A stretch of DNA of 64,000 nucleotides, from contig JAQBHI010000049.1 in the NCBI GenBank assembly GCA_032127875.1, positions 40,150 to 104,149 on the forward strand. Reading direction: 5' to 3'. Position 1 is the first letter of the stretch, and each line of letters begins with the position of its first letter. The position numbers and the translations under genes were made by a program. The notes beneath the pieces are model-generated. The model was not told the DNA's origin. It saw only the letters and a program-made list of their open reading frames with translations, and made no database searches. Shown here one piece after another: positions 1-26,145 of this stretch. This DNA is from Acidobacteriota bacterium (GTDB lineage Bacteria > Acidobacteriota > Vicinamibacteria > Fen-336).

Positions 1-473
1 TGCGGTCGCGCCATGACGTCTCGGCGACCGACGCGTCACCCGCCGCCATTGCCGCGGTGCGCCGTCTCGCCGCCACTCTCGCACCGCATCTGCCCCCGGA
101 GAACTTCCGTACGGAGCCGGTGGAGCGCATGTCGTTCCCGGACGCGTTCGCCGACGTCGTCATCAGCAGCGCCGTCCTCCACTTCGCGAGCGATGACGTG
201 CAGTTCGAGGCGATGCTGCACGAGATGTGGCGCGTCCTCGCGCCTGGCGGGTTCCTGTTCGCCCGCTTGGCCTCCACCATCGGCATGGAGCGGCGCGTGA
301 GGCACATCGAGGGACGGCGGTTTCACCTGCCCGACGGCAGCGAACGCTACCTGGTCGACGAAACCATGCTGGCCGACCTCGCCCGACGCCTCGGCGGCGA
401 TCTGCTGGACCCGCTCAAGACCACCGTGGTACAGGATCAACGCGCGATGACCACTTGGGTGCTCCGCAAGTAA
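1..473 (+). CDS. Class I SAM-dependent methyltransferase, C-terminal part (5' end lies outside the window)
   Basis: The frame is open from the window edge. Methyltransf_11-like C-terminus (VVISSAVLHFASDD ... WRVLAPGGFLF). Stop TAA at 471-473. Confidence 0.6.
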   Translation, partial: RSRHDVSATDASPAAIAAVRRLAATLAPHLPPENFRTEPVERMSFPDAFADVVISSAVLHFASDDVQFEAMLHEMWRVLAPGGFLFARLASTIGMERRVRHIEGRRFHLPDGSERYLVDETMLADLARRLGGDLLDPLKTTVVQDQRAMTTWVLRK

Positions 474-590
474 CCAGATGCGACCATGCGGTCTCGGAAA
501 CTGCCGGTCCACAAGCCCCAGCTGCGGCGTGAACGGCAAGGAGCGAACGGCGAAAGCGGACAGATCACTCGTCAAAAAACAACGGTCAAA

Positions 591-1340
591 TCACTTGTCA
601 ACGACAGCAGCCGACGCGCCGGAGGCGGGACGCAGGCTGCGGTACAGGACGATCATCTCCGCGGGCCGGCCCGCCCCCACGACCCTCCCCTGGTCCAGGA
701 CGATGAGACGATCGCAGAGCGCTTCGAGCAGTGTCGTCTCGTGGCTCACGAACAAGGCCGTGTCGCCACGCTGGCGCCGGCGCTTCAGCTCCGCCAGGCA
801 ACGCTCCCGAAAGGCCTCGTCGCCGACAGCCAGCGCCTCGTCGATCAGCAGGATGGGCGCCTCGGCGCGCAGCGCGACCGTGAAGGCGAGCCGCATCTTC
901 ATGCCCGTGGAGAGGTTCTCGAGACGTGCGTCCGTGAAGCGTTCGAGACCGGCCCCCGCCACGATCTCCGCCGCCTCCGCCACCAGCTTTCGGCGGGGGA
1001 TGCCGAGTACCACCCCGTACAGCAGCACGTTGTCCAGAACGCTCAATGTCCCGTGAAATCCCACCCCCAGCTCCAGGATTGGAGCCACGCGTCCACTGAC
1101 GACCACCGACCCGGCAGTGGGCGGGTAGATGCCCGCCACGATCCGGATCAGCGTCGATTTGCCCGAGCCGTTCTTGCCGAGCACGCCGACGAACTCGCCA
1201 CCTTCGACGCGCAGCGAGACGTCACTGAGGGCGTAGAGCGTCTCGTAGGTGAAGCGGCCCTCGACGAGCCAGCGGCTGAAGCTGCGGCGCCTCTGGTGCG
1301 GGATACGGAACAGCTTCGACAGCCCCGTGACCTCGATCAC
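591..1340 (-). CDS. ABC transporter ATP-binding protein, polysaccharide/O-antigen exporter type (Wzt/KpsT/TagH-like)
   Basis: Walker A GKNGSGKST, ABC signature LSTGMKMRL, Walker B ILLIDE. GTG start overlaps the stop of the upstream permease (GTGA). Confidence 0.85.
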   Translation of the reverse strand: MIEVTGLSKLFRIPHQRRRSFSRWLVEGRFTYETLYALSDVSLRVEGGEFVGVLGKNGSGKSTLIRIVAGIYPPTAGSVVVSGRVAPILELGVGFHGTLSVLDNVLLYGVVLGIPRRKLVAEAAEIVAGAGLERFTDARLENLSTGMKMRLAFTVALRAEAPILLIDEALAVGDEAFRERCLAELKRRRQRGDTALFVSHETTLLEALCDRLIVLDQGRVVGAGRPAEMIVLYRSLRPASGASAAVVDK

Positions 1341-2101
1341 AGCGTCTCCGGGATCAGCCGCTGACGCCGCACGAACGCGTACAGGCCGAGTGCGAACACC
1401 CCCACGCAGAACACCACCGTGAGCACGATGAAGCGCGTGGCCGGGAAGAAGCTGGCGGTCAGGAACCAGCGGATCAGAAAAAGACAGCGCGCGATGGGGT
1501 TCAGGTACAACACTTCAGCCATGGCGTCGGAGTGAACGGGATAGACGACCGGCGTCAACCAGAAAAGCGCCTGAAGAGCCGTGTGCCAAATGAGACCCGT
1601 GTCGCGAAAATCGACGTAGGCGAGGGCAACCAAGAAACCGATCCCCGCCGCCAGCAGGCCGAGGCACATGATCGGCAGGATCGCCAAGGGTGCGAGCGGC
1701 GACAACACGCCCCCGACCGCGAGGACCAGCACCAGCAGCAGGCTGTTGATGGCGAGGGTGATGAATGTGGAGAACATGCCCGAGGCGACCACCACTACGG
1801 CGGGCAGGGGCACCGCCTTCAGGATTCCCGTCTTGCGGGTGAGCGCATCGAGCCCCGAGAACGTGCAGTCCTGGAAGAACGTCCAGAACACGACCCCCAC
1901 GAGAACGTAGATCTCGAAGCCCCGACCGCCGATACCCAGGATCTTGCGGAAGACGGTGAGGTAAATCCCCAGCATCACCAGCGGGCTCAACAGGCCCCAG
2001 GCATAGCCCAGGGCCGAGTCGTTGTATTTGAGGCGGAAATCGCTGACCGCCACCTCGCGCACGATGTCGAGAAGGCGCGCGCGATCACGCCAGGGATGCA
2101 T
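1337..2101 (-). CDS. ABC-2 type transporter permease (Wzm/KpsM-like)
   Basis: Polytopic membrane protein with the typical ABC-2 N-terminus (VAVSDFRLKYNDSALGYAWGLLSPL). I place the start at the internal ATG 2099-2101, 13 nt after the upstream GT4 stop. The ORF-track start at 2356 is an antisense/alternate-frame extension. Confidence 0.8.
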   Translation of the reverse strand: MHPWRDRARLLDIVREVAVSDFRLKYNDSALGYAWGLLSPLVMLGIYLTVFRKILGIGGRGFEIYVLVGVVFWTFFQDCTFSGLDALTRKTGILKAVPLPAVVVVASGMFSTFITLAINSLLLVLVLAVGGVLSPLAPLAILPIMCLGLLAAGIGFLVALAYVDFRDTGLIWHTALQALFWLTPVVYPVHSDAMAEVLYLNPIARCLFLIRWFLTASFFPATRFIVLTVVFCVGVFALGLYAFVRRQRLIPETL

Positions 2102-3227
2102 ACAGGGACTCCATCGCGCGGGCGTACTGAGCGCGCGTGTATCGTACCGCCACGCGGCTGCGTCCGGCCGCTGCCAGCCGATCTCGTAACTCCCGGTCGC
2201 CGAGCAAACGCACGACCGCCTTCGCCAGCGAGGCCGGGTCGCCGGTCCGGAAATGAAGGCCGCTGCGCCCGTCTTCCACGATCTCGGCAGGCCCCCCGGA
2301 GTCCGACACGGCCACGGCGACGCCCGCAGCCATGGCTTCGACGACGACGAGTCCAAACGGCTCCCGGAGCGAGGGGCAGACCACCACGTCGCAGGCGGCC
2401 ATCACCGCGGCGATGTCCGGAACGAAGCCGGTGACGTGCACGCTCGCCTCGAGGCCGAGCTTCTGCCGCAGCCTCAGGACGCCGTCCCTGACCCGGCTCA
2501 CGTGGGGCAGCACGCCGGCATTCAGAGCCCCTCCAACGATCGCGAAGGCCACCTCGGGGAGGCTCGTCTGGATCTCGCGCGCTGCCAGGAGGAAGGTTGC
2601 GTGGCCCTTCATCGCGTCGAAGCGGGCGAACATCGCGACGAGCGGCACGGCCTCGGGGATGCCCAGGCGGAGCCGCACCGCGCGCGACCCCTCGCTGGGA
2701 GCGGCGGGATCGATCCCGACCGGGACCACCTGCGTGCGGGCGGTCAGCTCCGGTGCAAACGCCGCGATTTCGGCGCGCTGCGCCTCCGAGAAGGCAAGCA
2801 CCCGGGCCACAAGGCGGCGTGCCGCCATCCGCCACACAAAGCGTCGCGGCGCCTCGCCAAGATAGTTCACCTGGTAGACGAGCCTCGCTCCCGCGCGAGC
2901 AGCAGGAACGGCGAGCAGCAGCCCGAGCGGATCGGACACATGCAAGAGATGGACGCCTCGCTCCAGCACCAGCTTCCGGAGCCGAAGAGCGACCCGCGCG
3001 TGGCGAAGCCACACCCAGGGGGCCGCCAGGTGCCAAAGCGAGCGAGCCGAAAACCGGATCACGAGGGACTCGACGCCGGCCTCGCGCAAGCTGGCCACGA
3101 GCGGGCCATCGCTCGCGAGCACCACGAGAGGTCGAAACCGCGAGGTGTCGAGGCCGGCGAGCAGATGCAGCAGGGCGTTCTCGGCCCCGCCCAGTTCCGC
3201 GTACAGGTTCAGGTAGAGCACCGACAT
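2085..3227 (-). CDS. Glycosyltransferase family 4 (GT-B fold)
   Basis: N-terminus LYLNLYAELGGAENAL and C-terminal GT1/GT4 donor-binding region (EPFGLVVVEAMAAGVAV). Start taken at ATG 3227. Alternative upstream starts exist at 3257 and 3338. Confidence 0.8.
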   Translation of the reverse strand: MSVLYLNLYAELGGAENALLHLLAGLDTSRFRPLVVLASDGPLVASLREAGVESLVIRFSARSLWHLAAPWVWLRHARVALRLRKLVLERGVHLLHVSDPLGLLLAVPAARAGARLVYQVNYLGEAPRRFVWRMAARRLVARVLAFSEAQRAEIAAFAPELTARTQVVPVGIDPAAPSEGSRAVRLRLGIPEAVPLVAMFARFDAMKGHATFLLAAREIQTSLPEVAFAIVGGALNAGVLPHVSRVRDGVLRLRQKLGLEASVHVTGFVPDIAAVMAACDVVVCPSLREPFGLVVVEAMAAGVAVAVSDSGGPAEIVEDGRSGLHFRTGDPASLAKAVVRLLGDRELRDRLAAAGRSRVAVRYTRAQYARAMESLYASLA

Positions 3228-3288
3228 TGTTTCGCGGGGGCTCGCGCTCTCGTTCATCGGAGCATGCAGTCCGGGCACCCGCCCGAGT

Positions 3289-3987
3289 CTATACAGCCTC
3301 GGACGAGGCTGGCCACACCCGGCGGACGATACGCTCACGGTGGCCGGTCACCGCGACCGCGGCCACATAGCCTGGGCCGACAGGCAGGTCCGCTACTGCC
3401 AGACTCGTGATGCGCCGAAAGCCAGGGGGCCAGTCTTCGATCCCGACCTCGATCTTGTCCAGCCCATGCCCGATCCCCACGCCCAGCGCCTTCAGGCAGG
3501 CTTCCTTGCGGACCCAGCAGCGAAAGAAGGCTGTGGCCCGAGCTGTTTCTGGAAGGGCACGAAGCGCTTCCGCCTCTTTCGTGGCGAAGAAACGGTTGGC
3601 GATCGCCGTACTGTCACGGCCTGCGCAGACCCTCTCGATGTCCACTCCCGGCTCGTCGCGGCAGGTGAATGCGAGCAGGGCCCGGTCACCCGAGTGAGAG
3701 ACGTTGAAGCAAAGCTCGCCGGCGCCAGTCCTGTCCAGGACCGGCTTCCCGTGCGGCCCCTGCGCAAACAAAATGGACTGAGCCGAGGCTCCGAGGTAGC
3801 GGGCGAGAAGCGCGCGGAGCGCGCCGCGCACGACCACGAAGCGTCGGCGCGGTTCGTCGGACCGAAACGCCGCGGCTCGTTCCAGCTCGTCAACCGAGAG
3901 GCGAGCCGCGGCAGCTGCGGCGACATCGCCCAGGGCCACATCCCAGACGTGTACATCGCGTCCCTCGGGCCGGGCGAGGCCGCTCAC
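3289..3987 (-). CDS. 4'-phosphopantetheinyl transferase (Sfp-type)
   Basis: PPTase motifs (GKPVL, FNVSHSGD, WVRKEACLKALG). GTG start overlaps the stop of the NRPS-like gene (GTGA coupling). Confidence 0.75.
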   Translation of the reverse strand: MSGLARPEGRDVHVWDVALGDVAAAAAARLSVDELERAAAFRSDEPRRRFVVVRGALRALLARYLGASAQSILFAQGPHGKPVLDRTGAGELCFNVSHSGDRALLAFTCRDEPGVDIERVCAGRDSTAIANRFFATKEAEALRALPETARATAFFRCWVRKEACLKALGVGIGHGLDKIEVGIEDWPPGFRRITSLAVADLPVGPGYVAAVAVTGHRERIVRRVWPASSEAV

Positions 3988-6512
3988 GCGGAGGCTCCCA
4001 GGCCGGCGAGGAGAGCCTCGATCCGGGTGGCCACGGCGTCGACCGCTGGCTCCTGCAACAACTCCGCGTGGCCCGCGCCGATTCGTTCGACGCGGACGCC
4101 GCCTCGCGTCAGCCGGCGCAGCGCGTGCTCGGCCTCCTCAGCTGCCTCCGGTGGACCCTGGCCTGCAAGGAACAGCGCGAGACGAGCTTCGACGGGGCGG
4201 GGCCGGTAGCGGCGCAGCGCGCGCCGATTCGCTTGCATCAGGGGCGCTTCCACTGGCGAAATGGGCGGCCCTGGCTCGTTGCGGTGCAGCCGATTCGCGA
4301 GCGCGCTGAGAGCGACCCTGAGACGATCCTGCGGCCGGCGCCGGGCACCCAGGGGCAGCGGCGGTGGATCGAGCAGGACCAACAGGCTCACCTCCTGTCC
4401 GCCATGTTCGAGTTGGCGCGCCATCTCCAGAGCTACGGCGGACCCCATGCAGAATCCCCCCAGCAGATACGGCCCCAGTGGCTGGCGTCGCTGCAGGGCA
4501 CGGACGTAGTGAGCGGCGAGACCTGGCACGTCGGTGAGGGGCGGCTCAGCGCCGTCGAAGCCAGGCGCCTGCAGGCCGAAGAATGGCCGGCCCTCGAGTC
4601 GGCTGGCCAGTTTGGAAAGAAACATCACGCCCCCGCCCAGCCCGTGGACGAAGAAGAGAGGCTGGCCTGCGCCACGCGCCCGCAGTGGCACGAGCGGGCC
4701 CCACGCAGCACCTTCGGTCGTGCCGACGTGTTCGGCGAGCGCCCCGGCGCTGGGCGCGTCGAAGAGCACGCTGACCGGGAGGCTCACGCCGAGACGTTCG
4801 TGGAGCCTCGCCATCAGCTGCGCCGCCGCAACCGAGTCTCCTCCGAGCTCGAAGAAGTCGTCCTCTGCCGAGACACGCTGTACGCCAAGTACGTTCGCGA
4901 GCTGCTCGGCTATCGCCCGCTCCAACACCGACGCGGTTGAAGACGCGGCCGACTCGGGGCCCGCTTGCACGGCAGGGCGAGCGTCGCTCGTCAAGCCCAG
5001 CATCGCCGCGAGTCCGTTGCGCGGCACTTTACCCGAGGCATTCCGCGGCAGCGCGTCCCGGAAGACGATTTTCGACGGCACCTTGACCGCCGCAAGACGT
5101 GCCGCGACGAAGGCCCGCAAGGTCGCCGCCACGACGGCAGCACTCGGACGCAAGACCACGACGGCAGCCAGATCCTCCCCGAGGCGAGGATGGGCCACTC
5201 CGAAGGCGGCGGCTTCGGCCACGTCGGGGTGCGCAAGCAGCGCCTCGTCGACCTCGCCTGGCGAGATCTTCTCTCCACCGCGATTCACCTGCTCCTTGAG
5301 CCGGCCAGTGATCCAGAGGTCGCCATCGGCATCGAGCCGCCCAAGGTCCCCCGTCCGGAGCCAGTGCCCGAAAAAGGCTCCGCTCGTAGCTTCTGGATCC
5401 CCGTCGTAGCCGGCCATCACGCCCGGCCCCTCGACCACGATCTCGCCGACCAAGCCCGTCGGCAAAGGCCGGCCGGAGGCGTCGACGATCGCTAGCGAGG
5501 GCCCGACGGATCGGCCTACGCTACCGGGCTTGCGGCCCGCGTGCTTTTCGGTCACTGCGGTGACGAGCCCGGCCTCGGTGAGGGCGTAAGCCTCCAGGAC
5601 CGGCACGCCGAAAAGGGCCTCTACGCGTTCCTTTAGCGAGCTCGGCAGGGGGGCAGCTGCGGAGCGCACGAAACGCAGCGGCGCGCGATGGCGCAGCTCT
5701 TCGGGGTCGCCGGCACGATCCAGGATCGCCTGGTAAACGGCCGGTGAGGCGCCGAAATAGGTGGGCATCGCCTCTTGAAACCAGCGGCGGAAACGCTCGG
5801 CGGCGAAGCCCGGTGACACGAAGATGCTGCTTCCCGAAACGAGTGGGAACGCGAGAGTGTGGTAGAGAGCGGCCAGATGGAAGAGCGGCGAGACCGTGAA
5901 GCCCCTGTCGTCAGCCGTTAGCCCCCACACGCGGCAGGCGTCCCTGCCGGCTCCGCAGAACTGAGCATGCGTGATCCGCACGCGCCGCGGCTCACCGGCC
6001 GTGCCGGACGTGCACAACACGAAGGCGGCGTCGGCCGGCGACGCGGCCGACACCGCGGCGAGACCACCTGGATCACCTCGCCCATGCAGGTCGAAGAGAC
6101 CCGCAGGCCCGCTCGGGCGCGATTCGAGCTCGAGCACTTCAATCCCGAGCTCGCGCGCCGCCGCAGCCGCCGGCACGCTGCTGCGCTGGGGCACGGCGAT
6201 GGCACGGGCGCCCAGGCCGCTCAAGACCTGGCGGGCTTCGTGAAGCGGCAGCCCGATGGGAAGGGGCGCCGCGATGGCCACAGCGGTGACCGACAGAAGG
6301 GCTGTGACGGTCGCTGCCTCGTCCGGAAGCGCCAGCGCAATCCGGTCTTCTCGACCAAAGCCCCGCCCAGCCAGCAGGCCGGACACCCTCTCGACGTGAC
6401 CTGCCAGCTCGCCGTAGGTGAGAGGCGGTTGGCTCGGGGCCCTCAGGGCCTCGGCACGCGGCCGCTCGCGCGCGTGCTGCTCCAGAAGCCGAACGAGGGT
6501 GTTCCCGTACAT
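3984..6512 (-). CDS. NRPS-like tridomain protein: adenylation (AMP-binding) - peptidyl carrier protein - thioesterase
   Basis: A-domain cores LTYGEL, TSGTAGEPRRV, YALTE, LRTGDLGRLDADGDL, GRLKEQVNRGGEKISPGEVDEAL and PRNASGKVPR. PCP motif FFELGGDSV. Alpha/beta-hydrolase TE domain (FFVHGLGGGV ... LLGGFCMGSAVA ... GAGHAEL). 842 aa, ATG start at 6512. Confidence 0.85.
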   Translation of the reverse strand: MYGNTLVRLLEQHARERPRAEALRAPSQPPLTYGELAGHVERVSGLLAGRGFGREDRIALALPDEAATVTALLSVTAVAIAAPLPIGLPLHEARQVLSGLGARAIAVPQRSSVPAAAAARELGIEVLELESRPSGPAGLFDLHGRGDPGGLAAVSAASPADAAFVLCTSGTAGEPRRVRITHAQFCGAGRDACRVWGLTADDRGFTVSPLFHLAALYHTLAFPLVSGSSIFVSPGFAAERFRRWFQEAMPTYFGASPAVYQAILDRAGDPEELRHRAPLRFVRSAAAPLPSSLKERVEALFGVPVLEAYALTEAGLVTAVTEKHAGRKPGSVGRSVGPSLAIVDASGRPLPTGLVGEIVVEGPGVMAGYDGDPEATSGAFFGHWLRTGDLGRLDADGDLWITGRLKEQVNRGGEKISPGEVDEALLAHPDVAEAAAFGVAHPRLGEDLAAVVVLRPSAAVVAATLRAFVAARLAAVKVPSKIVFRDALPRNASGKVPRNGLAAMLGLTSDARPAVQAGPESAASSTASVLERAIAEQLANVLGVQRVSAEDDFFELGGDSVAAAQLMARLHERLGVSLPVSVLFDAPSAGALAEHVGTTEGAAWGPLVPLRARGAGQPLFFVHGLGGGVMFLSKLASRLEGRPFFGLQAPGFDGAEPPLTDVPGLAAHYVRALQRRQPLGPYLLGGFCMGSAVALEMARQLEHGGQEVSLLVLLDPPPLPLGARRRPQDRLRVALSALANRLHRNEPGPPISPVEAPLMQANRRALRRYRPRPVEARLALFLAGQGPPEAAEEAEHALRRLTRGGVRVERIGAGHAELLQEPAVDAVATRIEALLAGLGASA

Positions 6513-6590
6513 CCGCGTTCAGTCTACGCGGGCGGCGAGCGGCGGTGCAACGACCGCGCGGCTGAGCTGCCGCTACTAGAATGAGAGCGC

Positions 6591-8189
6591 GTGAGCCCGC
6601 TCCTTCGGCCCGAGCAACGACAGCATCTCGTCGCGCGCAGCTACCGCGTGCTCTCGGCTACGGTCGGTGGAGGGCCCGCACGGCGAATTGCCCGCCTGCA
6701 CCCGGCCCTCGACGAGGAAGCGGCCTATCAAGGCTGGCGCCGGGCGCAGAGGCAGGTCGCAATCGACTCCCCCACCCCGGCCCCGCCTCAGAATAGACCC
6801 CTCATCAGCGTCGTCATGCCGATCTTCGACGCGCCGGAGCGATTCCTGCGTGAGGCGATCGGGTCGCTGATCGAGCAGTCGTACCCGGAATGGGAGCTGT
6901 GTGCGGCCGACGGCGGCCCGGGCGGATCCGCTGGGAGCCGCGTCCTGCAGGAGTGGGCCCGGGTGGATCGTCGCGTCCGCGTCGTCGCGGTCGGCGAGAA
7001 CCGCGGCATCGCCGGCAACTCGAACGCGGCCCTTCGAATGGCACGCGGCGAGTTCGTCGCCCTGCTGGATCAGGACGACCTGCTGGAGCCCGACGCACTT
7101 CTGGCCCTGGTCGCGAGGCTCGACGAGGAACCGGGGCTCGACCTCCTCTACTCCGACACGGACAACGTGACGCCCTGGGGCGACCTCTACGCTCCCTTCT
7201 TCAAGCCAGACTGGTCCCCGGAACTACTCCTCTCCGCAAACTATCTCGCGCACCTGACTCTCGTGCGGCGCTCCGCGCTCGAGGCTGTCGGCAGCTTCGA
7301 CCAGAGCCTGGACGGCGCTCAGGACTGGGACCTGCTGCTGCGCGTCACCAAGAAGACCTCTCGGATTGCCCACGTGCCTCGGATCCTCTACCACTGGCGG
7401 TCGCTCCCGACCTCGTGCGCCTCGAGCCTGGATGCCAAACCCTATGCCCGCGAGGCGCAGCGGCGGGCGGTACAGGCTCACCTGGCAAGGGGCGGTCTCG
7501 CCGCCAGCGTGGAAGTCGCCGCGACCGGCCGGGTGCGGGTCGAACTACAGATGAAGGAACTGCCGAGCGTCACGCTCGTCCTGGCCAAGGGCGTCGCGCG
7601 CGCCCACGCCATGAGCTTCGCGGCCAGCGGCTTTCGCGGCCTCGACGTCGCCGAGCACGCGCGAGACGCGCGGGGCGAAGTGCTGGTGATCTGGGATCCC
7701 GGTTTCGAGCCCGACGACGAGGCCTGGGCCCGTGACCTCGCTGCCTGGGCGCTCGACCCCGAGATTGGCGCCGCAGGGGGGCTGGCGGTGGACAAGGACG
7801 GCCGCGTGGATTCCATCGGCTACGTGGCGAACGAGGGTATCGCCACGCCCGTTTTCGCCGGTGCTCAGGCCGATGCATGGACGCCCCTGGGTAGAGCGGA
7901 CTGGTACCGCAACCTGCTGGCGCCGTCGCCGCGCGCGTTTGCCACACGGCGGGAGATCTGCGAGCGCCTGGGCAGCCTGGAGGCATCACCGCAAGGGATC
8001 CTGGACTATGGAGTGAGATTGCGACGCGCCGGGCTGCGCACCATGGTCGTGCCGACGGCCCGGCTGGTTCGCTGTGGGCCGGCGAGCGCGTTGCCTGCGG
8101 TGCGCGGGGACTCCCTCGCGGGAACCGACCCTTGCTTCAACCCCAACCTCGCGCCGTCGTCGACGCTGCCTCGCCCTCGCGAAGACTAG
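6591..8189 (+). CDS. Glycosyltransferase family 2 (GT-A) with long C-terminal extension
   Basis: GT2 core ISVVMPIFDAPERFLREAIGSLIEQSY ... LDQDDLLEPDAL (DXD). GTG start. Divergent from the NRPS-like gene. Confidence 0.75.
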   Translation: MSPLLRPEQRQHLVARSYRVLSATVGGGPARRIARLHPALDEEAAYQGWRRAQRQVAIDSPTPAPPQNRPLISVVMPIFDAPERFLREAIGSLIEQSYPEWELCAADGGPGGSAGSRVLQEWARVDRRVRVVAVGENRGIAGNSNAALRMARGEFVALLDQDDLLEPDALLALVARLDEEPGLDLLYSDTDNVTPWGDLYAPFFKPDWSPELLLSANYLAHLTLVRRSALEAVGSFDQSLDGAQDWDLLLRVTKKTSRIAHVPRILYHWRSLPTSCASSLDAKPYAREAQRRAVQAHLARGGLAASVEVAATGRVRVELQMKELPSVTLVLAKGVARAHAMSFAASGFRGLDVAEHARDARGEVLVIWDPGFEPDDEAWARDLAAWALDPEIGAAGGLAVDKDGRVDSIGYVANEGIATPVFAGAQADAWTPLGRADWYRNLLAPSPRAFATRREICERLGSLEASPQGILDYGVRLRRAGLRTMVVPTARLVRCGPASALPAVRGDSLAGTDPCFNPNLAPSSTLPRPRED

Positions 8190-9196
8190 GCAATCACCGG
8201 CGGCAGGTCGCCGATCGGCAGTCCCGCCAACTCGCGCAGCGCGCGCGCCACCTCGATGCGGACCATGCGCTTGCGCCAGGCGTACACGAGGTCCGCGTTG
8301 TCGAGGGGCTTCGCTGGCTTGTAGGCAATGCCGGCAGCCATCTCGATCGCTTCGGCGTCGAGAATGCGGCCTTGCAGGAAGCTCTCGGCCCCCGTCGCCT
8401 CGACGGGATGGGTGTGCACAGCGCCGAGAACGATGCGCGATTCTTCCACGACGCTGCCCGGCCCCAGCCTGACTGCGGCGGCGACACCGACGATCGGGAA
8501 ATCGATCGAGCCGCGACGCCGGAGCTTGCGATAGGTCGCCTTCCAGCCGGCGCAGTCCGGCACGTGAATCTGCGTCAGGATTTCCTCGGGTCGCTTGGTG
8601 AGGTAGTGGATGCCGTCCGGGCCGTAGAGCGCGCTCACGGGAATGCGGCGCTCGCCGCTGGTACCGACCAGAGTCACTTCGGCGCCGAGCGTGATCATCA
8701 CCGGCGCCGTGTCGGAGGACGAAAGCGCCCAGCAGATCGACGAGCCCGGGGCAACCAGGCAGATGTCGCCATCCTTCTTCATGCAATAGCCGATCGAGGC
8801 GCGCCAGAACTCAGACTGGTTGTAGTAGTTGCAGCGCGTGTCGACGCACAGGTTGCCGCCGATGGTGCCGGCGTTGCGCAGCGGCGGCGAAGAAACCAGG
8901 CCTGCCGAGCGTGCGATCGACGGCCAGCGGCTTCGGATCGCCGGATGCTCCGCGACGGCCGTGAGCGTCGCCAGCGCCCCCAGCTGGAGGCCGCCGTTGG
9001 CGTGGATCGCGCCCGCGCCCTCGAGTTTGCGAACACTGACGAGAAGCTTTGGCGTGAACTGCTTCCGCTTCATGTTCGGGTAGAGATCGGTGCCGCCCGC
9101 AACGACCATCGCATCGGGACCGTGGTCGGCCAGGATCTGCGCTGCCTCGCGCGCCGTCTTCGGGGCGACGAAGCGAAACGCCGGCAGTCTCATCAT
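8186..9196 (-). CDS. Molybdenum hydroxylase FAD-binding medium subunit with Cys-rich insertion (HcrB/CoxM-like)
   Basis: FAD_binding_5 N-terminus (MMRLPAFRFVAPKT ... VVAGGTDLY) and CO_deh_flav_C region. Insertion CVDTRCNYYNQSEFWRASIGYCMKKDGDICLVAPGSSIC. The ATGATG start at 9191-9196 overlaps the large-subunit stop. Confidence 0.8.
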   Translation of the reverse strand: MMRLPAFRFVAPKTAREAAQILADHGPDAMVVAGGTDLYPNMKRKQFTPKLLVSVRKLEGAGAIHANGGLQLGALATLTAVAEHPAIRSRWPSIARSAGLVSSPPLRNAGTIGGNLCVDTRCNYYNQSEFWRASIGYCMKKDGDICLVAPGSSICWALSSSDTAPVMITLGAEVTLVGTSGERRIPVSALYGPDGIHYLTKRPEEILTQIHVPDCAGWKATYRKLRRRGSIDFPIVGVAAAVRLGPGSVVEESRIVLGAVHTHPVEATGAESFLQGRILDAEAIEMAAGIAYKPAKPLDNADLVYAWRKRMVRIEVARALRELAGLPIGDLPPVIA

Positions 9197-11679
9197 CGGC
9201 GCGCCCCCTGGCCGGAGAATTCGGGAGCGACCGAGCTGGCGCCGCGATGACCCTCGGGGACAGGCGCGGTGGCCGGATCGAGAGCCTCTACCGCGACGCT
9301 TTCCGGGTATTCGAAGCGCGGCAGCTGCGGGGCGCGATAGCGGCCCTCGAGCGCGGCCACGATTTTCTCCGGTGTGATGGGCACCTCGTCCACGCGCGCG
9401 CCGAGCGCTTCGTAGATCGCGTTCGCCACGGCGGGGATCACCGGAAGCAGCGGCCCCTGGCCACACTCCTTGGCGCCATACGGCCCTTCCGGATCCAGGG
9501 TCTCGACCAGGATCGAGTCGACCGGCGGCATCTCGAGCGTGGTGGGGCTCTTGTAGTCGAGCATCGACGGGATCTTGTGCAGGCCCTTGCGAAAGACCTG
9601 CTCTTCCATCAGCGCCTCGCCAAGCGCCATGTAGACGGAGCCCTCGATCTGGCCCAGCACCAGCATCGGGTTCAGGGACCGGCCGATGTCGTGCGCGATC
9701 CACACCTTGTCCACGCGGACGATGCCGGTCTCTTTGTCGGCCGAGAGCTCCACGGCCGCGGCGGAGTAGGAATATGTCGGCGTCGGGCCCACACCCGAGC
9801 CCTTCCATTTCGCGACGCTCCTGGGCGCCTTGTACGAGCCCACGGACCCGAGCGTGCCGTGCGCGGACTCGGCGAGCACGACGGCCTCCGCGAAACAGAG
9901 CGAGCGGCCTGGGTCGGCGGCGTCGAAGATGCGGCGTCCGCTCGCCCGCAGGCGGCCGACGGAAAGCTCGAGCTTGCTCGCTGCGGCCTCGAAGATCAGC
10001 TTACGCAGCTTGCGCGCGGCCTGGATCGCCGCGTTGCCGGTCATCAGCGTGACGCGCGACGAGTAGGAACCGAGGTCCACGGGCGTCAGGTCGGTGTCGG
10101 CGGTCACGACGCGAATGTCCTCGAACCCGATGCCAAGCTCCTCGGCCACGATGTAGGCGAGGATCGAATCGGAGCCCTGGCCGATGTCCGTCGAACCGCA
10201 GAACACCGTGACGCCGCCGCCGCGATCCACTTTGATCTGCACGCCCGACTGCGGCATGGCGTTCCAGTAGATCGGCAGGCCAGCGCCCGTCAGGTACGCG
10301 GACGCCGCGATCGCGAGGCCCCTGCCGGGCCCGAGCTTACCGTGCTTCTCTCGATAGCCGCTCTTCTCGATGACTCGCTCCAAACAGGCCTTGAGCCCGA
10401 TCGTGCGCACGTACATGTGGTTGGCAGTGACCGTGTACGGCTCGAGGCAGTTGTCGATCCGCCACTGCGCCGGCTCGAGGCCCAGATCCTCACAGAACTT
10501 GTCGATGTGGCATTCGAGAGCAAAGCGTGGCTGAGGCGTTCCGTGGCCACGCTTGGGTCCGCAGGGCGGCTTGTTGGTGAAGACGCGGACGCCCTCGAAG
10601 CGATAGCGCGGGATCCTGTAGGTCACCGTCTGCAGCGCGCCGGTGTAGTAGAGACTCGCGACGCCATAACTGCCATACGCGCCGCCGTCGAGGGCCGTCT
10701 TGAAGTGCATCGCCGTGATCGTGCCGTCCTTCTTGAGGCCGGTCCTCACCCACATCTTCACGGGATGGCGTCCGCGATGGCAGTAGAAGACCTCCTCTCG
10801 CGTCAGCGTCAGTTTCACCGGCCGGCCCGTCTTCATCGAGAGCTTGCAGGCCACGATCTCGTGGCCGAACGGGTCGCTCTTGCCGCCAAAGCCGCCGCCG
10901 TTCGGGCAAGCAATCACGCGCAGCTGCGAGGGCGGCAGCTCGAGCACCTTGGCCGCCGCGCGGTGCACGTAGTGCGGCGTCTGGGTCGAGGACCACAGCG
11001 TCAGCTTCCCGTCCGCGCCCGCCGCGGCGACGCACGCGTGCTGCTCCATCGGCAAATGCGTGTTGCCCTCGAAGTAGAAGTTGTCCTCGCGAACGTGCTC
11101 GGCCTCGGCAAAGCCCGCTTCGACGTTGCCGAAGTCGAAAGACACCTCCTTGTGGACGTTGCCGCGCGGGCCGTACTCGTGGATCCGCGCCTCCCGAATT
11201 TGAGGGGATGCGGCTTCCAAGGCCCCCCCGCCGGCTAACGCCTCATCAATAGACATGAACGCCGGCAGCAGCTCGTACTCGACTTCGATCAGCCCGCAGG
11301 CGGCCTCGGCGGTCTCCTCGTCGATCGCCGCGACCGCCGCGACCGGATCCCCGACGAAGCGGACCTTGTCGATGCACAGCGCGTGCTCGTCCTGGCTGAC
11401 CGGCAGGATGCCGAAGGGAATCGGCAGCTCGCTGCCCACGAGCGTTGCGAGGACGCCATTCAGCGCTGCGGCCCTCGAGACGTCGACGCGCTTGATCCTG
11501 GCATGGGGATGGGGGGAGCGCAGCAGCTTCGCGAAGGTCATGCGCGGCAGCACCAGGTCGTCGGCGAACACGGTCTGGCCGGTGACCTTAGCCGCGGCGT
11601 CGACCTTGAGCAGCGACCGGCCGATCACGCTCAGCGGCTCGCCCGCCTCGCCGGGCGTGGGAATTCGCGGATCAGCCAC
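9193..11679 (-). CDS. Molybdenum hydroxylase molybdopterin-binding large subunit (xanthine dehydrogenase / aldehyde oxidase family)
   Basis: Ald_Xan_dh_C-type N-terminus (IGRSLLKVDAAAKVTGQ), GGGFGGK motif, about 830 aa. Most plausible start is GTG at 11677-11679, which overlaps the small-subunit stop. The ORF-track ATG is at 11742. Confidence 0.85.
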   Translation of the reverse strand: MADPRIPTPGEAGEPLSVIGRSLLKVDAAAKVTGQTVFADDLVLPRMTFAKLLRSPHPHARIKRVDVSRAAALNGVLATLVGSELPIPFGILPVSQDEHALCIDKVRFVGDPVAAVAAIDEETAEAACGLIEVEYELLPAFMSIDEALAGGGALEAASPQIREARIHEYGPRGNVHKEVSFDFGNVEAGFAEAEHVREDNFYFEGNTHLPMEQHACVAAAGADGKLTLWSSTQTPHYVHRAAAKVLELPPSQLRVIACPNGGGFGGKSDPFGHEIVACKLSMKTGRPVKLTLTREEVFYCHRGRHPVKMWVRTGLKKDGTITAMHFKTALDGGAYGSYGVASLYYTGALQTVTYRIPRYRFEGVRVFTNKPPCGPKRGHGTPQPRFALECHIDKFCEDLGLEPAQWRIDNCLEPYTVTANHMYVRTIGLKACLERVIEKSGYREKHGKLGPGRGLAIAASAYLTGAGLPIYWNAMPQSGVQIKVDRGGGVTVFCGSTDIGQGSDSILAYIVAEELGIGFEDIRVVTADTDLTPVDLGSYSSRVTLMTGNAAIQAARKLRKLIFEAAASKLELSVGRLRASGRRIFDAADPGRSLCFAEAVVLAESAHGTLGSVGSYKAPRSVAKWKGSGVGPTPTYSYSAAAVELSADKETGIVRVDKVWIAHDIGRSLNPMLVLGQIEGSVYMALGEALMEEQVFRKGLHKIPSMLDYKSPTTLEMPPVDSILVETLDPEGPYGAKECGQGPLLPVIPAVANAIYEALGARVDEVPITPEKIVAALEGRYRAPQLPRFEYPESVAVEALDPATAPVPEGHRGASSVAPEFSGQGARR

Positions 11680-12207
11680 GGCTGACGCCGTCTTCGAGCC
11701 CGACCGTCTCCAGCGCCACCGGCAAGGGCGGATCCTCGCCACGCATCCGCGCCGCAGCCAACTCGACCGCCTCGAAGATCTTCAGATACCCGGTACAGCG
11801 ACACAGGTTCCCGGCCAGCGCTTCGGCGATCTCGGCACGATCGGCTTCAGGCTTCTTGCGGAGCAGCGCCTCGGCCGTGAGCAGAAAGCCCGGCGTGCAA
11901 TAGCCGCACTGCGCCGCGCCCAGGTCCGCGAACGCCTGCTGCAAAGGGTGCAGGGTCGCGCCATCGGCCATCGCTTCGACCGTGCGGATCTCGTGACCCT
12001 CGCACTCCACCGGCAGGCTCAGGCAGGACAGGATCGGCTTGCCGTCGACGAGCACCGTGCACGTGCCGCACTCCCCAAGCTCACAGCCGTGCTTCGTGCC
12101 CATCAGACCCAGCTCTTCGCGAATCACCTCGAGCAGGGTGTGGTGCACCGGCGCCAAGCACTCCCGCTCTTCGCCGTTGACCCTCAGCCGGATCCGCTGT
12201 TTCTCCA
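11672..12207 (-). CDS. [2Fe-2S] iron-sulfur small subunit of molybdenum hydroxylase (HcrC/CoxS-like)
   Basis: Plant-ferredoxin-type CELGECGTCTV and second cluster motif QCGYCTPG ... CRCTGY. GTG start at 12205-12207, preceded by GGAG 8 nt upstream. Confidence 0.8.
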
Positions 12208-12222
12208 CCTCAACCGCTCCTG

Positions 12223-13854
12223 ATGCTGCCTTTGAACGCCCGGTCAAACCCGGATTATAGCGCCCGGCACGAGCCCAGCAAACCGCTATACTGCCCGGCC
12301 TTGGTTCCCCGCGAGGCCGACCGCCGCCAGACCGCCCTCGTCGTGGCGTTGGGGATCGCCCTCTGGGCTCCCCGCCTGGTCCTGCAGTTCGCGCCACCGG
12401 CGCCCTACGACGAGGGCAACACGGTGGTGGCGGCCTGGCGCGTACTCGAGGGGGAGCGGCTGTATCGCGACGTCTGGCAGATGCACCCTCCGGGAACGGC
12501 CTGGAGCCTGGCCTTGGCATTCCGCCTGCTGGGAACGACGCTCTTCACCGAGCGCCTGGTCAAGGCCGCCCTCGCGGGCATCGCTCTCGGCCTGCTCCAC
12601 CGCTTCGCGCGGCGGATGGCGGGGCCGTGGCTCGCGGCGAGCGCGGTCGTCGCGGGAGCGCTGCTTCCGCCGGCAACCCCGTTCCTGCGTCCCAACGATC
12701 CGGCGTTCGTCGCGAGCCTTGCGGCCAGCGCGCTGGTGCTGGCGCGGGACCGCCTAGGTCGCTGGGGATCGCCGGCGATCGGAGCGCTCCTGGGCCTGAC
12801 CGCGGCCTATCGGCTGGACTTCGGCGCCGGTTCCGCGCTGGCGATCGCGGCGTTCCTGGTAGCGCGGGGCGAGGCGCGCCGTCTTCTCGCCGTGATCCCG
12901 GGCGCCGCCATTGCGCCCGCGGCCGGCGCTGCGGCACTCCTGCTCCAGGGAGTGGCCGGCTCTGCGTGGGAACAGATGTTCGTGTTTCCAGCTACGGCCT
13001 ACCCCGCTCAGCGCGGCATGCCGCTGTACGACCCTGCTGTGGTCCTGCTGCCCCTGGCGCTGTGCGGCGCGGCGCTCCTCGCAGCCTGGGCCGGGAGGCG
13101 CCACGATCGCGTCCGCCACGAGGCGCTGCTCCTGACGGGCTGCCTGGGACTGGGCTACCTCGGGTACGCGCTGGTGCGCCCTGACTTGGAGCATACGCTC
13201 CCGGCGCGGGTGCTGGGCCTGCTGGCCGGGACCGGGCTTGTGTCGGCAGCAAAGGGTATCGTTCCGGTCACCTCGCGCCGGCTGCTCCAGGCCGTGGCCG
13301 TGGCCGCGTCCTGCGGCGTCGTCGCGCCGGCGCTGCCGACGCTCGTGGAGACCGCGCGGCTGGGACTGATGCTGCTCCGGCCGGTAGCCCGGGAGCCGCA
13401 GTGGGCGAGAGCGGGCCCGCTGCTCCGCGTCGACACCGACGCGGCGGCAATGGCCCGACTTGTCGCCGAGCGCACCCGTCCGGGCGAGCGGATCTTCGTG
13501 GGCAACGAGCGCCACGATCGCATCCTTGTCAACCACGTGCTCCTCTACTTCCTCGCAGATCGGCCGTCGGTGACGCGCTACTACAACCTCCACCCCGGTC
13601 TAGCCACCCGCGCCGACATCCAGGAGGAGATCGTCGAGGCCATCGAACGGCAGGCTGTCCGGATCGTCGTGCTCTGGAGCGCTCCGCTTTGGGACGAACC
13701 CAACGCAACCGCGCGGCCGGCCGCCGGTACGCTCGACGCGGCTCTCCGCTCCCACTTCGAAGCGCGGGAGACGCGAGGCCGCTACACGCTCTGGGAGCGC
13801 TCGTCTGCCGGACCCGGCGCTGTCAACACCAGGACGGCCAGCGGCGCCAGATGA
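12223..13854 (+). CDS. Polytopic membrane protein, putative GT-C-type glycosyltransferase (start uncertain)
   Basis: 543-aa ORF with 10 or more hydrophobic helices and a DEG motif after the first helix. Antisense frames are fragmented R/P-rich junk. The listed start lies only 16 nt from the divergent hydroxylase gene, so the true start may be downstream. Confidence 0.5.
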   Translation: MLPLNARSNPDYSARHEPSKPLYCPALVPREADRRQTALVVALGIALWAPRLVLQFAPPAPYDEGNTVVAAWRVLEGERLYRDVWQMHPPGTAWSLALAFRLLGTTLFTERLVKAALAGIALGLLHRFARRMAGPWLAASAVVAGALLPPATPFLRPNDPAFVASLAASALVLARDRLGRWGSPAIGALLGLTAAYRLDFGAGSALAIAAFLVARGEARRLLAVIPGAAIAPAAGAAALLLQGVAGSAWEQMFVFPATAYPAQRGMPLYDPAVVLLPLALCGAALLAAWAGRRHDRVRHEALLLTGCLGLGYLGYALVRPDLEHTLPARVLGLLAGTGLVSAAKGIVPVTSRRLLQAVAVAASCGVVAPALPTLVETARLGLMLLRPVAREPQWARAGPLLRVDTDAAAMARLVAERTRPGERIFVGNERHDRILVNHVLLYFLADRPSVTRYYNLHPGLATRADIQEEIVEAIERQAVRIVVLWSAPLWDEPNATARPAAGTLDAALRSHFEARETRGRYTLWERSSAGPGAVNTRTASGAR

Positions 13855-15101
13855 ATCAGCACGCGTTCGAAGGAGAGCAGCACCTGGAGGACGCCCTTCC
13901 AGGGCGAGGCGACGTAGATCAGGAAGACGACCGCCAGGTACGCCGGCGGCACGAGGCGCCGGTCGCTGATCGGACCGCAACGTGCGCGCTGCCTGAGGGC
14001 CCACAACCCGGCCATCCCCCACCAGAACAGGCCGGAGCGCTGGGGGTGCAGCAGCGCGATCCGCAGCATCTCCGCCAGGACCATGGGGGCGCGGGGCGCC
14101 CCAGTGGCGAGCGCGTCGGGCGTGAGCCGCGTGAGATAGCGCTCGTCGAAGCCCGGGGGCAGCGTCGCCCGGACCAGCAGCCAGGGGACGACGACGGCAG
14201 CGCACACGGCGAACATCGTGAGGGCCGGCCGCAGCCGACGACGCGACGCGCTGCCCTGGATCCAGGCCGACACGGCGAGCAGCAGGCCGAGGACGATGCC
14301 CTCGTTCTTCGAGAGGACAGCGCCCGCGGCCAGCAGGCCCGCGAGCGGCACGGCGCCAGCCTCGAGGGCGAGGGCCGAGCCCGCGACGTACGAGGCCAGC
14401 ATCGTGTCGGCCACGCCCGCGTCCGCTCCACCCTCCTCGGAGAAGAGCAAGGTGGGCATGAGCAGCACCGCCAGGGCCAGCCCCCGCCCTGTCCGCGAGT
14501 CGCGCCGCGGCAGTTCCGCGAGCAGTAGGGCGCCCAGCGCCAGGTAGAACAGCAGGGGCACCGCGCGCATCACTGGCTCCGACGGCGGGCCGAACGCCGC
14601 TGCCGTCGCCTCCAGCGTCGGCAGCAGGGGCGGGTACTGCGGATGCGGCAGCGGGAAGCCGAGGTCGCGGTGTTCCGGGCTCGGGTAGCTCGAGGCCGCG
14701 TGGATCACCCGCGCGTGGAGCCACCACAGCGTCCGGCCGTCCACGGAGGCCATCGGGACCGTGGCGACGTTGCGCACCATCGCTGCGACCATGAGCAGCC
14801 AGACGAGCAGGCCGATGCGCTCGATCAGCGTCCAACCAGGGACGGCTTCCCGCGGACGCTCGCGCAGCCGCCACAGCCAGTGCAGCCCCAGCGGCGCGCC
14901 CAGGCCCAACAGCAGCACGCTCGCGTGGCGCATCGGCACGCCGACTTGCGACGCGGCGAGCAGCAGCACGGCGACGCCGAGTCCACCCAGCAGGAACGCC
15001 GCCGCGACTCGAGCCGTCCGCGGGACGGGCCAGGCGCTTCGCCTGAGGAACTGCCCCCCCACGCCAAGGCAGGCCGCGACCAGCAGCAGGAGGCCACTCA
15101 T
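13782..15101 (-). CDS. Polytopic membrane protein, ArnT/PMT-like GT-C glycosyltransferase candidate
   Basis: ATG at 15101, preceded by the stop of the upstream gene (ATGA overlap). About 12 predicted TM helices. The upstream 230 aa of the ORF-track ORF are an R/G-rich alternate frame of the neighbouring gene. Confidence 0.55.
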   Translation of the reverse strand: MSGLLLLVAACLGVGGQFLRRSAWPVPRTARVAAAFLLGGLGVAVLLLAASQVGVPMRHASVLLLGLGAPLGLHWLWRLRERPREAVPGWTLIERIGLLVWLLMVAAMVRNVATVPMASVDGRTLWWLHARVIHAASSYPSPEHRDLGFPLPHPQYPPLLPTLEATAAAFGPPSEPVMRAVPLLFYLALGALLLAELPRRDSRTGRGLALAVLLMPTLLFSEEGGADAGVADTMLASYVAGSALALEAGAVPLAGLLAAGAVLSKNEGIVLGLLLAVSAWIQGSASRRRLRPALTMFAVCAAVVVPWLLVRATLPPGFDERYLTRLTPDALATGAPRAPMVLAEMLRIALLHPQRSGLFWWGMAGLWALRQRARCGPISDRRLVPPAYLAVVFLIYVASPWKGVLQVLLSFERVLIHLAPLAVLVLTAPGPADERSQSV

Positions 15102-15823
15102 GGCGACCCGAATGGGCGCGGTGCAAAAGCTCCGCGCTCGCAGGAGAGCTGCAGCCAGCGCACGTCCGGCCGCGACGCCGCGAGCAGCGCCGCGGCCGCC
15201 GCAGAGCAGCGCGGGGCGTGCGCGACGTAGACCCGCCGGGGGAACAGGTAGGACGCAGCGAACCCGTCCGCGAAGTCGAAGAAGCGTCCCGTCCGCAGGA
15301 CCAGCAGGGCGCCGGCGTCGCCCGAGCTGCGCTGGAAAGCCTCGATTGCCCGGTAGTCCGGCTCCGAGCTGTGCCGGCCGTAAACGTGCAGACGCCGCTC
15401 CGCGAAACCCAGTCCCGCCAGCTCGGCCTCGCGAAGGCCGTCGCGCACCAGCCGCACCGGCGCGAGGGCGATCGAATACAGGAGGAGCAGCGCAACCAGC
15501 CGCCGGCGCCAGGTCTCGCTGGCGGACTCGTCGTCGCGTTGGCCGGTGACGGCCCGAGCCAGGAACACGCCGCGTGCCGAGGCCAGCGCCCATGCGCCGG
15601 TGGCCACGACCGCCGCCGGGCCGCAGAGGGAGTGCAGGATCCGAGTCTGCACCGCCAGCTCGGCCCGAAACACCGCGCCGTGGATGGGGAGGCGCAGGTA
15701 GAGCCACTGGATCACCGCAACGAACGCGTCTGGCGACAGCAGCGCCGCGCCGAAGAACGGCGCCGCGAACGCCACCAGCCAGGCGTTCGCGAGCCAAGGG
15801 CTGCGCTCGCAGCGGCCGGTCAT
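15098..15823 (-). CDS. Integral membrane protein, hypothetical
   Basis: 241 aa and hydrophobic. Translationally coupled on both sides (ATGA overlaps at 15820-15823 and 15098-15101). Confidence 0.5.
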   Translation of the reverse strand: MTGRCERSPWLANAWLVAFAAPFFGAALLSPDAFVAVIQWLYLRLPIHGAVFRAELAVQTRILHSLCGPAAVVATGAWALASARGVFLARAVTGQRDDESASETWRRRLVALLLLYSIALAPVRLVRDGLREAELAGLGFAERRLHVYGRHSSEPDYRAIEAFQRSSGDAGALLVLRTGRFFDFADGFAASYLFPRRVYVAHAPRCSAAAAALLAASRPDVRWLQLSCERGAFAPRPFGSP

Positions 15824-19055: not shown

Positions 19056-19062
19056 GCGGAGA

Positions 19063-19584: not shown

Positions 19585-19589
19585 ACTCG

Positions 19590-21129: not shown

Positions 21130-23160
<2,031 letters not shown>

Positions 23161-23982: not shown

Positions 23983-26145
<2,163 letters not shown>

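Follow-up and report, generated by a model that had tools for sequence, protein, structure and literature searches.

What does a carrier-loading enzyme with a single module do at the head of an operon that ends in a polysaccharide-class exporter? The locus that raises this question occupies positions 591–8189 of a 64,000-nucleotide stretch of DNA (the window) from an Acidobacteriota bacterium of the Vicinamibacteria (assembly GCA_032127875.1, contig JAQBHI010000049.1, positions 40,150–104,149), which has a G+C content of about 70%. Its central element is a fused adenylation (A)–peptidyl carrier protein (PCP)–thioesterase (TE) protein, A-PCP-TE, encoded together with glycosyltransferases and an ATP-binding cassette (ABC) exporter. 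With moderate confidence, the locus is read here as an ABC-transporter-dependent surface-glycan locus of the O-antigen, capsule or exopolysaccharide kind, the variable part of which is a thiotemplate acylation module: an acid loaded on the PCP would be transferred by the cysteine TE to a sugar precursor or to the glycan itself, and export of the product would follow. The parts all come from known families; their combination is undescribed, as the literature gave no example of a Wzm/Wzt glycan operon with a fused A-PCP-TE at its head, or of such an enzyme being replaced by a multi-module nonribosomal peptide synthetase (NRPS).

Operon layout and related loci

The open reading frame (ORF) listing, together with Pfam and NCBIfam, confirms all the genes named in an earlier note made from the sequence alone, including the domains of the six cluster genes. 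On the minus strand, from 6512 to 591, the order is A-PCP-TE, Sfp-type 4′-phosphopantetheinyl transferase (PPTase), family 4 glycosyltransferase (GT4), Wzm permease and Wzt ATPase; a two-domain family 2 glycosyltransferase (GT2) is encoded divergently. GT4, permease and ATPase, placed upstream of A-PCP-TE by the note, are downstream of it in the direction of transcription. The TGA stop codon of A-PCP-TE overlaps the GTG start codon of the PPTase gene as GTGA, the permease/ATPase junction has the same GTGA overlap, and the end of the GT4 gene overlaps the permease start by 17 nt, as read from the sequence. Between PPTase and GT4 there is either a 29-nt gap, with an ATG at 3257, or a 50-nt overlap, with a GTG at 3338 that would serve as an alternative GT4 start (417 aa). 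Relatives align from residue 28–40 of the long ORF, so the start at 3257 is preferred. Overlaps are thus present at three of the four junctions, and the statement that all genes overlap was slightly too strong.

No intergenic terminator was found within the operon by reading the sequence or by a terminator scan. Promoter and terminator scans gave matches no more numerous than in shuffled sequence, and a scan of 1–8400 for a sigma-70-type consensus had no match anywhere. Both divergent promoters are presumably located in the 78-bp region 6513–6590; a spacing of about 80 bp also occurs in related loci L084 and L001. Rfam gave no regulatory RNA near the cluster. The methyltransferase that the note counted with the cluster is a convergent, plus-strand fragment. 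None of the related loci gave a tblastn match to it; where it would lie, they have citrate synthase or a third GT2. On these grounds it is not counted as part of the cluster.

Nine independent related loci repeat the gene order of the cluster, with protein identities of 41–88%, which makes the arrangement more than a product of chance. Counting the window, seven loci carry A-PCP-TE, the others being L084 (88% identity to the window protein), L001 (76%), L082 and L083 (53–54%), L089 (46%) and L087 (about 44%; protein P0142, from a metagenome-assembled genome labelled Vicinamibacteria). Their layout is a divergent GT2 followed, on the opposite strand, by A-PCP-TE, an optional PPTase, GT4, Wzm and Wzt. 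The PPTase gene is present in seven of the nine related loci; in L082 and L083, which lack it, the A-PCP-TE stop codon overlaps the GT4 start. Carrier enzyme, PPTase, glycosyltransferases and ABC-2 exporter therefore form one conserved, translationally coupled unit, as had been proposed.

In this Vicinamibacteria-like lineage, the site next to citrate synthase varies among four states. The first is the A-PCP-TE state of the window. In the second, represented by L086, a divergent GT2 is followed by PPTase-GT4-Wzm-Wzt-GT2, with neither A-PCP-TE nor a remnant of it. In the third, found in L088 and L169/L170 (L157 is on the same contig as L170), the slot is filled by an NRPS of roughly 2,700 residues, split into a 1,933–1,937-aa A-PCP-C-A-PCP-nitroreductase protein (C, condensation domain) and a 792–802-aa C-PCP-TE protein; PPTase-GT4-Wzm-Wzt-GT2 follow downstream, with every junction overlapping. 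The fourth is the P0332 locus, with GT2-GT2-Wzm-Wzt-DUF6311-citrate synthase. The divergent two-domain GT2 adjoins the operon in all related loci with sequence spanning this position (the window, L001, L082–L084, L086–L089 and L157), and is absent from the P0332 locus.

The loading A-PCP part of the multi-module version is 41% identical to the window protein and its terminal PCP-TE part 41–44%, so the assembly line resembles a version of the window enzyme whose loader and TE have been separated by additional modules. We take the inserted C domain to be heterocyclisation-like from its N-terminal motif (FPLTEVQEAYWVGR), and the second A domain is presumably of the cysteine type (FDLSVYD, SLGGATEAS). 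If these motifs are read correctly, they imply an acyl-thiazole or thiazoline unit. The NRPS genes occupy 1789–9965 of L088 and 1–8219 of L169, and include three carriers.

The Wzm permeases of all these locus types form one tight clade, with 54–91% identity to the window protein and no more than 38% outside it. The clade is sharply bounded: about 100 clusters have at least 46% identity, after which values fall to 38% or less. Loci that have thiotemplate genes and loci that lack them draw on this one Wzm clade, which argues that the transporter recognises the glycan or its lipid carrier, not a thiotemplate product. The usual decorating enzymes of surface-polysaccharide loci are acetyl-, methyl- or aminoacyl-transferases. 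By analogy, constant export genes combined with a thiotemplate part that is absent, single-module or multi-module behave as serotype-specific decoration genes do in O-antigen and capsule loci, which likewise keep conserved export genes beside a variable set at a fixed chromosomal site.

Exporter, glycosyltransferases and acyl-loading enzyme

The best solved relatives of the ATPase are Aquifex aeolicus Wzt (6AMX, E = 6e-49), TarH (6JBH, 5e-43), Mycobacterium tuberculosis RfbE (9QFX, 4e-37) and TagH. Among NCBIfam models, the galactan Wzt/RfbE family scores highest (158 bits), above DrrA (102) and NodI (97), and TagH also exceeds DrrA and NodI; all these scores are below the equivalog cut-offs. 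The protein aligns only to the nucleotide-binding domain (residues 27–234) of A. aeolicus Wzt and has no C-terminal carbohydrate-binding domain; that domain is confined to the terminator-dependent subclass of Wzt, and if this is an O-antigen system, the ATPase would fall in the subclass without it. The only significant solved relatives of the permease are Wzm (6M96_B, 6OIH_D), TagG (9CFP) and mycobacterial RfbD (9QFX), and a comparison with solved structures gave no match to DrrB or NodJ. On these sequence relationships, the exporter is assigned to the Wzm/Wzt/TarGH class (ABC-2, type V).

In the PDB, the GT4 matches generic GT4 enzymes by sequence. The AlphaFold2 model of the GT2 (mean pLDDT 84, pTM 0.83) has two α/β domains, and its top Foldseek matches are the K4CP chondroitin polymerase (2Z86, E = 1e-17) and heparosan synthase 2, PmHS2 (8VH8). 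The N-terminal GT-A domain contains a DQDD motif at residues 160–163; the second α/β domain (about residues 305–495) has WDPGF, no DXD motif and no Pfam GT2 match. Bifunctional polymerases of the K4CP/PmHS2 kind are marked by two GT-A domains, each with a DXD. As modelled, the GT2 looks polymerase-like. A metagenome profile search with the GT2 alignment listed only L089, L092 and L157 as close relatives; the other 77 loci served as background. The distant homologues are double-GT2 proteins of roughly 620 aa, several of them annotated as ‘O-antigen biosynthesis protein’; among the matches listed, a Wzt-like ATPase is present in 24 of their 77 loci and A-PCP-TE in none.

GT2, GT4 and Wzm/Wzt together are a standard kit for ABC-dependent glycans. 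Given an exporter of the Wzm/Wzt/TarGH class and a polymerase-like GT2, the core of the cluster is therefore ordinary, and the claim that it resembles no canonical O-antigen locus fails for this core; the observation that the loaded unit is unusual holds. The likeness to ABC-dependent O-antigen, capsule and teichoic-acid pathways (Wzm/Wzt, KpsMT, TarGH; K4CP, PmHS2) extends to the permease and ATPase, the two-domain GT2 fold and the GT4. The cluster differs from them in a Wzt without the carbohydrate-binding domain and in having no priming enzyme, terminator kinase/methyltransferase or ligase. We know of no characterised locus of this kind that is headed by a thiotemplate enzyme.

In the head enzyme, the A, PCP and TE domains all keep their catalytic residues, which are conserved across the window clade. 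Its A domain scores 354 bits with the acyl-CoA ligase model FadD7 and 174 bits with the amino-acid adenylation model (NCBIfam). The nearest solved relatives are plant oxalyl-CoA synthetases, AtAAE3 (5IE0, E = 1e-80) and 6QJZ; residues 3–501 align end to end with residues 3–506 of AtAAE3, with no large insertion. Fatty acyl-AMP ligases (FAALs) are marked by an N-terminal-domain insertion, about 20 residues long, which keeps the enzyme from adopting the CoA-binding conformation; judged from the alignment with AtAAE3, made without FAAL references, no such insertion is seen. Asp235 of amino-acid-activating domains, which lies in the FDxS motif and binds the α-amino group, has no equivalent, as the A domain reads PLFHLAAL there. 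The oxalate pocket of AtAAE3 is lined by Val215-His216, Cys288-Ser289, Ala313-Met314, His319 and Lys500; Ser289 and His319 contact oxalate and are conserved only in oxalate enzymes (PMC8905533).

In the window protein, His216, Cys288 and Ser289 of AtAAE3 correspond to Ala214, Ala285 and Ala286, and His319 is deleted; the pocket pairs of this protein and its close relatives are Leu-Ala, Ala-Ala and Ala-Leu, the deletion being common to them. The pocket would thus be larger and less polar than that of an oxalyl-CoA synthetase. The domain type and the loss of the oxalate residues point to activation of a carboxylic acid that is neither oxalate nor an α-amino acid. Oxalate, suggested by the best PDB match, was rejected on the pocket residues. 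The earlier note had left an acyl and an aminoacyl unit open, and the former is favoured; its statement that the substrate cannot be read from the sequence is true only in part, as the loss of the oxalate-specific Ser289 and His319 can be read there. Oxalyl-CoA synthetases (AtAAE3, LsOCS, yeast Pcs60) share the core ANL motifs and the A10 lysine with the window A domain; they load CoA, whereas the window enzyme would load its fused PCP, and the oxalate residues lost in the window clade are kept in many distant members of the A-PCP-TE family.

In an alignment with solved NRPS TE domains, Cys688 of the TE takes the place of their catalytic serine. A GxCxG cysteine nucleophile is a less common choice in TE domains, known from ObiF and SulM (PMC6668435, PMC11298585) and present in the window TE as well. 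In ObiF and SulM, the triad Asp is located on a different strand (‘position II’), and β-lactone or β-lactam rings are formed from β-substituted aminoacyl substrates. Asp715 of the window TE lies 27 residues past the cysteine (LLDPP), a spacing that suggests the canonical position of EntF and AB3403, and the substrate is predicted to be a plain acid. An ObiF/SulM-type TE was considered and is unlikely given the position of Asp and the non-amino-acid substrate; the canonical Asp spacing gives no indication of β-lactone or β-lactam chemistry. Among the weaker solved relatives is the TE of Pks13 (E about 3e-4). Literature on this architecture, on oxalyl-loading carrier enzymes and on NRPS-like clusters of Vicinamibacteria yielded nothing specific.

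The PPTase is of the two-lobed, Sfp type, about 230 aa long, with Pfam matches to PF22624 (AASDHPPT_N) and PF01648 (ACPS). Its best NCBIfam model is HetI (1.9e-44), with 152 bits against a cut-off of 370, and being below that cut-off it is not called a HetI equivalog. In L086, the PPTase gene (9290–10001) adjoins the divergent GT2 gene with a 57-bp gap, and the locus has no carrier-protein gene; this PPTase is either an orphan left after a clean deletion or serves a carrier encoded elsewhere.

Outside the lineage, A-PCP-TE homologues are widespread (1,828 matches, many phyla, 35–44% identity) and occur in unrelated contexts, for example beside a CapK-like ligase or a radical SAM protein. A contig profile search with the A-PCP-TE alignment served as a negative control: the matches listed are mostly stand-alone acyl-CoA ligases, with the window lineage not among them, and none of the 80 distant loci listed has GT4, Wzm or GT2 neighbours. 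Within the lineage, the orthologues always lie inside the operon. The note had named an A-PCP-TE without glycosyltransferase or ABC genes in relatives as evidence against a cluster; this is the situation of distant homologues, and it does not extend to orthologues of the lineage. The wider family, drawn from Cyanobacteria, Planctomycetota, Chloroflexota, Bacteroidota, Acidobacteriota and others, mostly keeps the oxalate pocket (FH[IV]HGL, RS[CS]SS, TEAxHQM) and has the GxCxG thioesterase (alignment of P0010–P0120), which suggests that it may charge a carrier protein with oxalate or an acid of that kind. No paper on this A-PCP-TE(Cys) family was found in the literature; with its oxalate-type pocket and its spread over many phyla, it appears to be uncharacterised.

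Proposed acylation of a surface glycan and competing explanations

In the proposed mechanism, GT4 and the two-domain GT2 would assemble a glycan attached to a lipid carrier on the cytoplasmic side, as their family membership suggests. The PPTase would convert the PCP to its holo form, and the A domain would activate the carboxylic acid and load it onto Ser560. The TE would take the acyl group on Cys688 and transfer it, with a hydroxyl or amino group on the glycan or on a sugar precursor as the acceptor in place of water, a step for which the TE of Pks13 is the precedent. Finally, Wzm/Wzt would export the lipid-linked product; its class is read from sequence and its substrate is presumed.

Two known systems resemble parts of this scheme. 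The O1 antigen of Vibrio cholerae is exported by an ABC transporter, and a discrete acyl carrier protein is involved. It is N-acylated with tetronate, which requires the ATP-binding protein WbeL, the loss of which abolishes the O antigen (PMC3441752). The wbeK-O genes are alike in that a sugar of an O-polysaccharide is acylated with an unusual small acid, with the ligase-like WbeL encoded in the O-antigen locus; this likeness is one of function. Ligase, carrier and transferase are separate in V. cholerae, whereas the window has a fused A-PCP-TE, a presumed Cys-TE transferase and a dedicated PPTase. The second system is Pks13, the TE of which is an acyltransferase that places mycolate onto trehalose, the glycoconjugate being exported by a dedicated transporter (PMC11649247). 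Pks13 has a serine nucleophile, a very long acyl chain and an exporter of the resistance–nodulation–division type (MmpL3); the window TE has a cysteine and is distantly related, and a transferase role is ascribed to it by analogy.

Several points weigh against this reading. Each chemical step in it is inferred, and transfer from a TE to a glycan would be without a precedent shown in this family. Decoration of a polysaccharide by a thiazole-type NRPS would be unprecedented, and such an NRPS would fit a small molecule better. Neither the cluster nor the scanned ORFs of the window include a priming phosphoglycosyltransferase, a chain-length regulator or a ligase. The PPTase of L086 could reflect recent decay of the module and not a functional ‘type’ of locus. 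Flanking synteny (ferritin, xanthine dehydrogenase (XDH) genes, citrate synthase) is likewise common to every locus that has the arrangement, and common descent thus accounts for some of the conservation.

The strongest rival, tentatively retained as a less probable reading, is the model of the earlier note, in which the unit is released, glycosylated and then exported: the TE would free the acid (in the sister loci, an acyl-thiazolyl peptide) as an aglycone, GT4 and/or GT2 would glycosylate it, and the ABC-2 pump would secrete a small glycoside or glycolipid, in analogy with the phenolic glycolipid/DrrABC or heterocyst glycolipid/HetI systems. The position of the thiotemplate genes at the head of the operon, with coupling to GT4, agrees with this, as do the HetI-like PPTase, the lack of a priming enzyme or polymer-length genes in the cluster and, in the sister loci, a complete NRPS of the kind typically seen for small molecules, which has Cy-like C and Cys-type A domains as well as an oxidase. 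The exporter fits it poorly: the Wzm/Wzt/TarGH class handles lipid-linked polymers, the DrrA and NodI scores are lower, and the permease lacks a DrrB or NodJ match. The glycosyltransferases, especially the two-domain polymerase-like GT2, are enzymes of envelope glycans, and natural products are normally glycosylated by GT1 enzymes. Sister loci without a thiotemplate gene share the Wzm clade and the GT2s, and the order of release, glycosylation and export is therefore less likely than acyl transfer onto a glycan.

A hybrid of thiotemplate product and polysaccharide is proposed more speculatively, and we regard it as rather doubtful. Here, the Cys-TE would cap or decorate a lipid-linked glycan with the product of an assembly line, a simple acid in the window and an acyl-thiazolyl peptide in the sister loci, and module swapping would diversify the surface antigens of Vicinamibacteria-like Acidobacteriota. 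If true, both the glycoconjugate class and the role played by NRPS release domains would be new.

It is quite unlikely that the genes are merely adjacent, with A-PCP-TE and PPTase making or recycling an unrelated acyl metabolite (for example, as a detoxification or housekeeping acyl-thioester hydrolase) after landing in a variable glycan locus. Such an origin would agree with the breadth of the A-PCP-TE family, with its unrelated contexts and the lack of glycosyltransferase and ABC neighbours in the 80 loci listed, with the glycan genes that manage without A-PCP-TE in L086 and the P0332 locus, and with the common ancestry of all positive loci. Against it stand the stop/start overlaps of A-PCP-TE with glycan genes and an operon position kept over 41–88% divergence while the flanks rearrange (the XDH genes are lost in L082, the PPTase gene in L082/L083). 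An assembly line with an orthologous loader and TE also takes the place of A-PCP-TE in precisely this slot, a point in favour of selection on the position.

Least probable, and very unlikely, is a role in priming or anchoring, in which TE transfer would form an aglycone or lipid end for the glycosyltransferases and the resulting glycolipid head group would be polymerised and flipped by Wzm/Wzt: an enlarged, hydrophobic pocket (His, Cys and Ser to Ala) compatible with a longer aliphatic acid and the missing polyprenyl-phosphate priming enzyme speak for it, but the loci without the module keep their glycosyltransferases and exporter, so that priming is independent of the module, the A domain aligned with AtAAE3 has no FAAL-type insertion and, to our knowledge, Wzm/Wzt-class systems use polyprenyl-diphosphate carriers.

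Should acylation of a surface glycan prove correct, an A-PCP-TE in a Wzm/Wzt operon, replaced by an NRPS in sister loci, would link nonribosomal assembly lines with cell-envelope glycans in an abundant, poorly cultured soil lineage, and would broaden what is known of bacterial surface chemistry and of the roles that TE domains can take. It would also matter for genome mining: antiSMASH-type tools would call the region ‘NRPS-like’, yet it may be a serotype locus for an envelope glycan.

Features and surroundings of the locus

Table 1. Features of the locus and of the adjoining envelope-type genes, in positions of the window (nt) or residues of A-PCP-TE (aa).
Feature	Position	Strand	Basis or remarks
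Class I S-adenosylmethionine (SAM) methyltransferase, C-terminal fragment	3–467	+	155 aa; convergent with ATPase; weak NCBIfam methyltransferase matches
Wzt-type ABC ATPase	591–1340	−	249 aa; Pfam ABC_tran; last operon gene
Wzm-type ABC-2 permease	1337–2101	−	254 aa; Pfam ABC2_membrane; several hydrophobic segments
GT4 (GT-B fold) glycosyltransferase	2085–3257	−	390 aa; Pfam Glycos_transf_1 1e-37, Glyco_transf_4
Sfp/HetI-type 4′-phosphopantetheinyl transferase	3289–3987	−	232 aa; Pfam ACPS + AASDHPPT_N
A-PCP-TE	3984–6512	−	842 aa; first operon gene; Pfam AMP-binding 3e-57, PP-binding 4e-18, Thioesterase 8e-31
A domain	aa 1–505 (about), nt 4998–6512	−	Pfam
P-loop TSGTAGEPRRV	aa 168–178	−	Motif
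A10 Lys495	A domain	−	Motif
PCP	aa 533–596, nt 4725–4916	−	Pfam
PCP Ser560	nt 4833–4835	−	Motif
TE	aa 617–834, nt 4011–4664	−	Pfam
TE Cys688	nt 4449–4451	−	Motif
TE Asp715	nt 4368–4370	−	Motif
TE His815	nt 4068–4070	−	Motif
Divergent intergenic region, A-PCP-TE operon/GT2	6513–6590		78 bp
Two-domain GT2	6591–8189	+	532 aa; Pfam Glycos_transf_2 at aa 73–232 only
PMT_2-like GT-C membrane glycosyltransferase	12223–13854	+	25.8 bits against a cut-off of 26.1
Multi-transmembrane protein, no family match	within 13782–15797	−	Family scan
241-aa protein, no family match	15098–15823	−	Family scan
SGNH/AlgX-like putative O-acyltransferase or esterase	15820–17034	−	Family scan
NAD-dependent sugar epimerase	17000–17890	−	Family scan

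The GT2 gene is tail to tail with three genes for an XDH-family molybdenum hydroxylase (FAD, molybdenum-cofactor and 2Fe-2S subunits; 8186–12270, minus strand), and the stops overlap by 4 nt. The position of this trio is kept in most related loci, and it is missing in L082. As a source of the acid, by oxidation of an aldehyde, it is suggestive and speculative, as the trio is absent from L082 and may only reflect synteny. The envelope-type genes of 12223–17890 have similar genes in L086 and L088, so the glycan region may be larger and extend past 1–8189.

A GT2/GT21-like glycosyltransferase is encoded at 19499–20581, within 19003–20581 on the plus strand, behind small ORFs that match no family and measure about 96 and 173 aa in relatives; conservation of the trio beside ferritin extends to L001, L082–L084 and L087. 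Tandem genes for H+-translocating pyrophosphatases (680 and 723 aa, each with a PF03030 match of about 870 bits) follow at 21130–26154 on the minus strand, with a gene for a VTT/DedA-family membrane protein (23202–23900) between them. Two further plus-strand genes are located away from the cluster: a stand-alone AMP-binding ligase (602-aa ORF, 43582–45390) and a DegT/DnrJ/EryC1-type sugar aminotransferase (53974–55122). The rest of the window consists of housekeeping genes. A single tRNA gene at 59426–59510 on the plus strand is the only Rfam match in the window.

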